A DNA stretch of 64,000 nt, taken from positions 75,252 to 139,251 of the forward strand of contig CANRTI010000001.1 of assembly GCA_947642635.1 (NCBI GenBank). The letters run 5' to 3'. The notes under the pieces were generated by a model. That model did not search any database. It saw nothing but the letters and a program-made list of their open reading frames with translations, and was not told where the DNA came from. The DNA is from an uncultured Mycoplasma sp. (GTDB taxonomy: Bacteria > Bacillota_I > Bacilli_A > RF39 > UBA660). Below are positions 54,088-54,361 of the stretch, piece after piece (position 1 is the first letter of the stretch; each line of letters starts with the position of its first letter). Both the position numbers and the translations under genes were made by a program.

Positions 54088-54099
54088 TTTACTACCTCC

Positions 54100-54283
54100 T
54101 TTAGTTGTGCAGTACTTAATGATATTGTAATATGGAAAATGAACTCTATAAGCGTAATGCAATGAAGCGCCTACACCACGTGTAGATTAGTTCTTTTGAA
54201 ATATTACTATTTATATATTATAAATAAATATAGTCCCTTAACGACTCGTTAAAGTAGGAAAATAATTCCAATCACTACTGCAA
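54100..54283 (-). ncRNA. candidate retron msr-msd non-coding RNA
   Basis: Extended -10 TGCTATAAT (54288-54296, minus strand). TGCAGTA (54276-54282) is complementary to TACTGCA (54108-54114). Internal hairpins at 54236-54254 and 54171-54185. The region ends at the RT RBS. Confidence 0.45.
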
Positions 54284-54361
54284 TTTTATTATAGCATAAA
54301 ATTATTATTTAAACTATTTTATAATATCTAAAGTAATTAATCTTTTTTTATTAAATAATAA

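Follow-up and report, generated by a model that had tools for sequence, protein, structure and literature searches.

Retron Ec107 of E. coli is among the experimentally studied producers of msDNA, and its msDNA has been demonstrated by others (PMC6868368). Stand-alone (msr-msd)-RT cassettes were reported from the Ec107 branch of clade 2 by Mestre et al. in 2020 (PMC7736814), who left their function open, and Ec107 was left out of the defence assays of Millman et al. A SPIRE retron survey (bioRxiv 10.64898/2026.05.14.725207) lists the lineage as clade2_Ec107like, with 192 members, 178 of them in Bacillota and 91% host-associated. The survey reported no recurrent accessory module for this lineage and detected its msr/msd with an 'Ec107_like' covariance model, which came first among the most frequently detected covariance models. 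Whereas most retrons have a linked effector gene, the Ec107-like lineage has none.

The DNA analyzed here, called the window below, is a 64,000-nt stretch in which an initial annotation had likened the gap upstream of a reverse transcriptase (RT) gene to a retron msr/msd. Positions 54108–54282 on the minus strand very probably are the msr-msd ncRNA of a stand-alone Ec107-like (clade 2) retron, with the RT gene directly downstream. The locus is an ordinary further member of the described effector-less Ec107-like retrons, which are common in gut Bacillota. Both the clade2_Ec107like lineage and its want of accessory genes have already been published; compared with this orphan clade-2 branch nothing substantive differs, and the window adds one more member.

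The RT gene occupies positions 53134–54087 on the minus strand and encodes a 317-aa Ec107-like (clade 2) retron RT without a fused effector domain, identified by PADLOC, by identity to the Ec107 RT and by its motifs. The start codon is the ATG at 54087; a TTG start at 54162 given by the ORF tool is an artefact, since the tool takes the first start codon that follows a stop. A ribosome-binding site, AAAGGAGG, was read directly at 54095–54102 on the same strand, 7 nt before the ATG, and its GGAGG is kept in the alignment. The top PADLOC model, RT_Ec107-like, matched the full length of the protein with 412.7 bits (2.4e-124), compared with 342.3 bits for the next model, RT_III-A (7e-103). All of the top 20 PADLOC matches were retron RT models, and the best NCBIfam matches were retron models as well. 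The closest solved structure was that of the Ec86 RT (2.8e-30), in which NATPH, YADD and VTG stand in register with NVMPH, YSDD and VTG of the window RT. Judged by its sequence, the protein is a retron RT, with region X (NAxxH), the YxDD box and region Y (VTG) all found, and both profile scores and identity group it with the Ec107 RT and not with another retron type. Retron-Eco1 (Ec86) has in common with the window the RT core and motifs, which align, and the general msr-msd logic; it differs in being a type II-A retron with an NDT-like effector, and its ncRNA has no sequence-level homology to that of the window. A group II intron was rejected: Rfam gave nothing at the locus at the gathering threshold and no intron match at a permissive one either (E up to 10, on positions 52900–55600), and the NCBIfam model group_II_RT_mat scored 42 bits on the RT against a cut-off of 300. 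Phage and plasmid collections contained no close relative, the best match being 44% identical.

Direct reading of the minus strand found every motif listed in the initial annotation in its place: the extended −10 element TGCTATAAT (54296–54288), the perfectly complementary a1 and a2 arms TGCAGTA (54282–54276) and TACTGCA (54114–54108), and the hairpins CUUUAAC-GAGUC-GUUAAGG (54254–54236) and CTACAC-GTG-GTGTAG (54185–54171). The 7-nt complementarity of the arms is real, but by itself it is no evidence, since, when the gap was shuffled by mononucleotides, 1898 of 2000 shuffles (95%) contained a perfect 7-nt inverted repeat 100–220 nt apart, so that such a repeat is what chance gives in this DNA; the real gap holds five such pairs. 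The initial annotation had also proposed folding the region. Positions 54100–54284 of the minus strand fold at −43.4 kcal/mol (z = −4.14), a value matched by none of 200 shuffles, and it is precisely the a1/a2 stem that closes the minimum-free-energy structure.

Comparison with related loci provided evidence that we regard as decisive for reading the region as an ncRNA. One genome per species was scanned, yielding 80 related RT loci with 42–75% RT identity, almost all of them from MAGs of gut or rumen origin that carry the labels uncultured Bacilli, Tenericutes or Erysipelotrichaceae. In 66 of the 80, a stretch of about 180 nt upstream of the RT is conserved, at a constant position. With 44 close homologues, RNAalifold predicted a1/a2, the GAGUC hairpin and the base of the msd stem, with compensatory changes in 17 of 24 pairs; six of the seven a1/a2 pairs were compensatory in the close homologues. 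When a structure drawn by hand from the window sequence was applied to a trimmed MAFFT alignment of 44 homologues, double changes appeared in 27 of 48 pairs (95 cells), a number reached by 0 of 500 column shuffles, while sliding the partner by 1–3 columns gave 5–13 pairs.

A covariance model, R1, was built from gut-Bacilli sequences alone. It gave a single real match in the 64-kb window, at 54107–54284 on the minus strand (155 bits, E 4e-28). Of the 80 related loci, 66 had a full-length match that ended 15–45 nt ahead of the RT start, and about 23 of those were outside the seed. An alignment of 67 sequences contained compensatory changes in 46 of 47 pairs, with 94% of cells paired; this alignment was fitted to the R1 structure and leans to it, whereas the MAFFT-based counts are unbiased, smaller but clear. 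For 20 distant loci outside the seed, aligned together with the window by MAFFT, RNAalifold predicted both a1/a2 and the hairpin P2 described below de novo, with seven of seven and seven of eight pairs covarying, respectively. The initial annotation had held that homologous RT loci lacking conserved or covarying a1/a2 arms would speak against it. The opposite was found: in the 67 sequences all seven a1/a2 pairs changed on both sides, and 98.5% of cells were paired, which answers the point in its favour. Compared with the RT, neither the ncRNA nor its msd shows unusual conservation, the median nucleotide identities of ncRNA and RT being 80% and 74% among close relatives and 56% and 65% among distant ones.

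As delimited by R1, the fold and the covariation, the putative ncRNA runs for 175 nt from a1 (UGCAGUA) to a2 (UACUGCA). A candidate branching G, G54275, follows a1 directly on its 3′ side; it is unpaired or wobble-paired, and its context is UAG. All 67 aligned sequences have a G at this position, whereas the stem positions beside it vary; the position is also a G in E. coli Ec107, where it aligns with the G of GGCAAUAG. The initial annotation had favoured the two G residues of a UGG (54269–54268) as branching residues. They are not invariant and lie in the 5′ arm of an msr hairpin, P1 (GGAA-UUAUU-UUCC, 54257–54269, minus strand), which has compensatory changes in four of four pairs, with 93.5% of cells paired. 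Because G54275 is invariant and unpaired and the UGG residues covary as an arm of P1, G54275 is more likely to be the branch point, where a 2′–5′ branch would form. Another pairing proposed in the initial annotation, GUGAU (54275–54271) with AUCAU (54123–54119) after a 4-nt bulge, is present in the sequence, but the pairing is weakly supported across the homologues, at 76–81% of cells.

The second msr hairpin, P2, which can be written CUUUAACG-AGU-CGUUAAGG (54236–54254, minus strand), has a near-invariant CGAGUCG core; seven of its eight pairs covary, with pairing in 98% of cells. Within the core, G70, A71 and U73 were found in all 67 sequences, while C74 was present in 66 and G72 in 64. By analogy with other retrons, P2 is likely to be the element recognized by the RT. 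An AT-rich hairpin, P3, is present in the minimum-free-energy fold at the msr/msd junction (54208–54226, minus strand) and is variable in sequence among homologues; reverse transcription probably stops there. The msd (54127–54207, minus strand, 81 nt) is a long mismatch-containing stem, GUAAUAU...AUAUUAC, that carries two apical hairpins, CUACAC-GUG-GUGUAG (54171–54185) and GC..AU-UGC-AU..GC (54152–54168), both on the minus strand and, like the stem, identified by covariation. Compensatory pairs in the 67 sequences numbered seven of seven in each of helices 5 and 6, six of six in helix 7 and two of two in each of helices 8 and 9. Apical-hairpin variants among the homologues include CTACAT/ATGTAG, CTATAC/GTATAG and GTACAGC/GCTGTAC. 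The predicted order of msr hairpins P1, P2 (and P3) followed by a long msd stem is the layout expected of a retron, and the helices tested all covary.

The real Ec107 was located by searching E. coli genomes for an insertion between slmA and pyrE. Of 5425 complete genomes, about 380 had a slmA–pyrE match split in two, consistent with an Ec107-type insertion; one of them was inspected (NZ_CP032426.1), and it has the 319-aa RT. Strain SCEC020001 (locus L088) carries a 319-aa RT between slmA and pyrE. The window RT and the Ec107 RT are 43% identical over 306 aa (E 9e-88), and R1 in its full length matched L088 at 2246–2422 on the minus strand (42.1 bits, E 1.7e-7), immediately upstream of the Ec107 RT. 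Judging from this match and the like fold, the ncRNA of the window is homologous to the Ec107 msr-msd. Together with the covarying arms, this homology upholds the central proposal of the initial annotation, an msr/msd-type ncRNA bracketed by a1/a2 upstream of the RT.

The two loci have much in common: an ncRNA directly upstream of the RT, a 7-bp a1/a2 stem, P1, a P2 with the CGAGUCG core and a 3-nt loop, a long msd stem, and an unpaired G right after a1, in GCAGUAG in the window and GCAAUAG in Ec107 (the G after GGCAAUA). Neither has a linked effector, and both cassettes are intergenic among housekeeping genes (PMC6868368). They differ in host, Ec107 being gammaproteobacterial and the window coming from an AT-rich uncultured genome of the gut Bacilli/'Tenericutes' type; in the catalytic box, which is YCDD in Ec107 and YSDD here; and in the msd apex, which is a longer GC-rich stem in Ec107 and two short hairpins here. 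The similarity of the ncRNAs is modest, with 42 bits for Ec107 compared with 155 bits inside the gut family.

Transcription of the cassette is predicted to start at about 54281–54282, the first bases of a1, from the extended −10 promoter TGCTATAAT at 54288–54296 on the minus strand, which was identified by reading and by its conservation. TA[TC]AAT was found at most 40 nt upstream of the RNA in 59 of 67 homologous loci, with the TG extension in 48, and in 38 loci the −10 ends exactly 3 nt before model position 1. A two-hexamer promoter scan, which found 24 candidates against 21 expected from shuffles, missed the extended −10. The stretches 54283–54301 and 57472–57490 have TGnTATAATAAAAT in common, consisting of an extended −10 and an A-rich discriminator at equal distance from the RNA 5′ end. 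At 57472–57490 this TGnTATAAT-AAAAT block precedes tRNA-Arg, and its spacing to the 5′ end of the tRNA is identical. The TGnTATAATAAAAT block is probably the strong-promoter consensus of this organism.

We propose the following mechanism by analogy with known retrons. Given its conservation, the extended −10 would start a single transcript at about 54281–54282 that holds both the ncRNA and the RT mRNA, and the RNA ends pair as the 7-bp a1/a2 stem, as the covariation shows. The RT would then bind the msr hairpins, probably through P2 with its invariant CGAGUCG, and the 2′-OH of G54275 would prime reverse transcription of the msd. Copying would begin just 5′ of a2, with the template for the first msDNA nucleotides running from 54115 upward, and pass through the long mismatched stem and the two apical hairpins. 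Finally, by homology to Ec107, host RNase H would trim the template, leaving a branched, RNA-linked msDNA of about 90–110 nt. In this lineage the RT–msDNA complex might sense phages together with an unlinked partner, or have a domesticated role in the cell.

The cassette could also be an inactive relic, decaying and no longer making msDNA. It is effector-less, its surroundings between tRNA-Arg and pcrA are variable and close to the remnants of an integrated element, and a near-identical locus carries a frameshift. This locus (L085, from an ERZ14651000 contig) is 98.5% identical to window positions 52901–55500. Its RT has an 8-bp deletion, corresponding to window positions 53270–53277, which frameshifts the C-terminal ≈60 residues, so that the called product is 274 aa long; two further deletions remove 6 bp upstream of the promoter and 2 bp right behind a2. 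Either the retron is decaying in that strain or the assembly is in error, and the element may be dispensable or decaying in some strains. Against decay in the window itself, the RT ORF is intact over its full length and has all its catalytic and retron motifs, the ncRNA scores 155 bits with every helix intact, and the promoter and ribosome-binding site are intact as well. We consider it unlikely that the window holds a relic.

The genes around the RT in the window are a 354-aa ORF, a gene for an HD-like protein, pcrA, a nucleotidyltransferase gene and ligA. When ten window neighbours were compared with the 80 RT loci by tblastn, no homologues were found save isolated matches in L030, L037 and L078, and all-versus-all clustering of 743 flanking ORFs gave no family present in more than 9 of the 80 loci. 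A tripartite defence system would have an effector gene conserved with the RT, and no such gene is conserved at these loci. Type III-A retrons, the sister group of the Ec107 branch to which the second-best PADLOC match of the RT belongs, have a PRTase-like effector with or without a winged-helix protein; no such gene lies beside the RT here or at the related loci. A type III-A retron was rejected: the upstream ORFs have no PADLOC or Pfam match, and downstream are pcrA, the nucleotidyltransferase gene and ligA.

The 354-aa ORF (54362–55426, minus strand) was described as ADP-ribosyltransferase-like from an AF2 model and a family alignment. Its family comprises about 278 gut-Bacilli proteins, mostly of 393–412 aa, and the protein has no match in Pfam, PADLOC, PHROG or NCBIfam. 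The model (pLDDT 80.6) has an N-terminal beta-rich domain followed by a long helical C-terminal domain. The best PDB match of the N-terminal domain was pertussis toxin S1 (E 0.03, probability 0.96), a weak match with TM 0.25/0.46. An R/S/E pattern is conserved in the family alignment, with R20 and E136 invariant and S66 nearly so (at least 90%). The protein may be an uncharacterised ADP-ribosyltransferase-like toxin.

Two arrangements involve more than the making of msDNA. One is a working two-part system and not a broken tripartite retron, in which the RT–msDNA would itself be active, in a cellular or defensive role, or would be newly paired at this locus with the ADP-ribosyltransferase-like 354-aa protein as a retron effector not seen before; we think this quite unlikely. 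The other, a tripartite retron in which the 354-aa protein is a toxin restrained by RT–msDNA, strikes us as very unlikely. The ORF is on the same strand and ends 66 nt before the retron promoter, the best fold match of its modelled N-terminal domain is pertussis toxin S1, an R/S/E pattern is conserved in its family, and the pairing of ORF and retron recurs in L085. Yet a homologue of the protein was found at none of the 80 related RT loci, and its homologues include genes in unrelated contexts, with neither an RT nearby nor the ncRNA (L081–L084). The lack of a family match, the weakness of the fold match and the published description of the lineage as without accessory modules (10.64898/2026.05.14.725207) also stand against it. 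The 354-aa ORF is unlinked to the retron family.

The evidence for an Ec107-like msr-msd bears also on a plainer reading of the structured region, that it is a mere regulatory 5′ leader of the RT mRNA, acting as an attenuator or in translational control and not reverse transcribed. The region does sit between the promoter and the RT ribosome-binding site, and P2 with the U-rich sequence after it was picked up by a terminator-like scan. However, the U-tract after P2 is missing in E. coli Ec107, and the terminal a1/a2 stem, the invariant G, the two or three msr hairpins and the long msd stem make up the architecture of a retron ncRNA. Since the RNA is homologous to the msr-msd of Ec107, a known msDNA maker (PMC6868368), a leader of this kind is highly improbable. 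The two 'terminators' reported by the scan were rejected as such, being the P2 and msd hairpins themselves.

A DRT2-like system, in which rolling-circle reverse transcription yields a concatemeric cDNA encoding a stop-less 'neo' gene, likewise consists of one RT and an upstream ncRNA without an effector, and NCBIfam gave a weak Drt2 match (E 1.3e-14), but this reading is barely credible, as that match scored 54 bits, far under its cut-off of 390, where retron models of PADLOC and NCBIfam score 150–410 bits on the RT, a stop-free frame occurred in only 4 of 67 ncRNAs, stop-free msd concatemers occurred in 22 of 67, estimated to be about the chance level, no frame was conserved, and a1/a2 and a branch-type G are retron features.

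Read as an Ec107-like retron, the locus offers a precise predicted anatomy for one member of the lineage, comprising the promoter, a1/a2, a candidate branch G, a putative RT-recognition hairpin and the msd. The RNA family spans E. coli Ec107 and the AT-rich gut Bacilli; its G and the CGAGUCG core of its hairpin are invariant. These results are useful for annotation and to those who want compact, effector-less retrons of about 1.2 kb as DNA-producing tools. The locus opens no new question; the role of effector-less retrons is a problem already recognised, and it is not more testable here.

Several further observations concern the surroundings of the retron. Downstream, pcrA (50987–53083, minus strand), which encodes a UvrD-type helicase, starts 50 nt after the RT stop in the usual pcrA–ligA arrangement. 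In a PADLOC scan of 47 window ORFs, the matches listed (the first 25 of 81 families) were only of a generic helicase/nuclease type, and there were strong single-member matches to GajB and to 'RTasHel', an RT-associated helicase (5e-115). These two presumably come from PcrA. Because pcrA is in its usual pcrA–ligA setting and is absent beside the RT in nearly all of the loci, the RTasHel match reflects general similarity within the UvrD family, and neither match is informative.

Upstream, a 339-aa protein without a family match (55459–56478, minus strand) has H...HD, a motif typical of HD phosphohydrolases. L030 alone has a homologue upstream of its RT (1765–2868, 32% identical). The nucleotidyltransferase gene is also close by in L030, an arrangement that suggests partial synteny and not a functional link. 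Elsewhere, after a 412-aa ADP-ribosyltransferase-like homologue and before ireB, about 690 bp carry no called gene in L081–L083 (7239–7926) and in L084 (5576–6263); the retron covariance model had no match in this stretch in L081–L084.

Farther upstream in the window, a perfect 15-nt direct repeat, TGGTGTTCTTGAAGG, occurs at 56581–56595 and 57394–57408, the latter copy being the 3′ end of tRNA-Arg(CCG) (57394–57470, minus strand). The 0.8 kb between the copies contain a KilA-N fragment (56912–57193) and a 90-aa ORF fragment. The TGGTGTTCTTGAAGG repeats look like an att duplication with the remnant of an element integrated at the tRNA, and the retron lies 2.3 kb outside this remnant.
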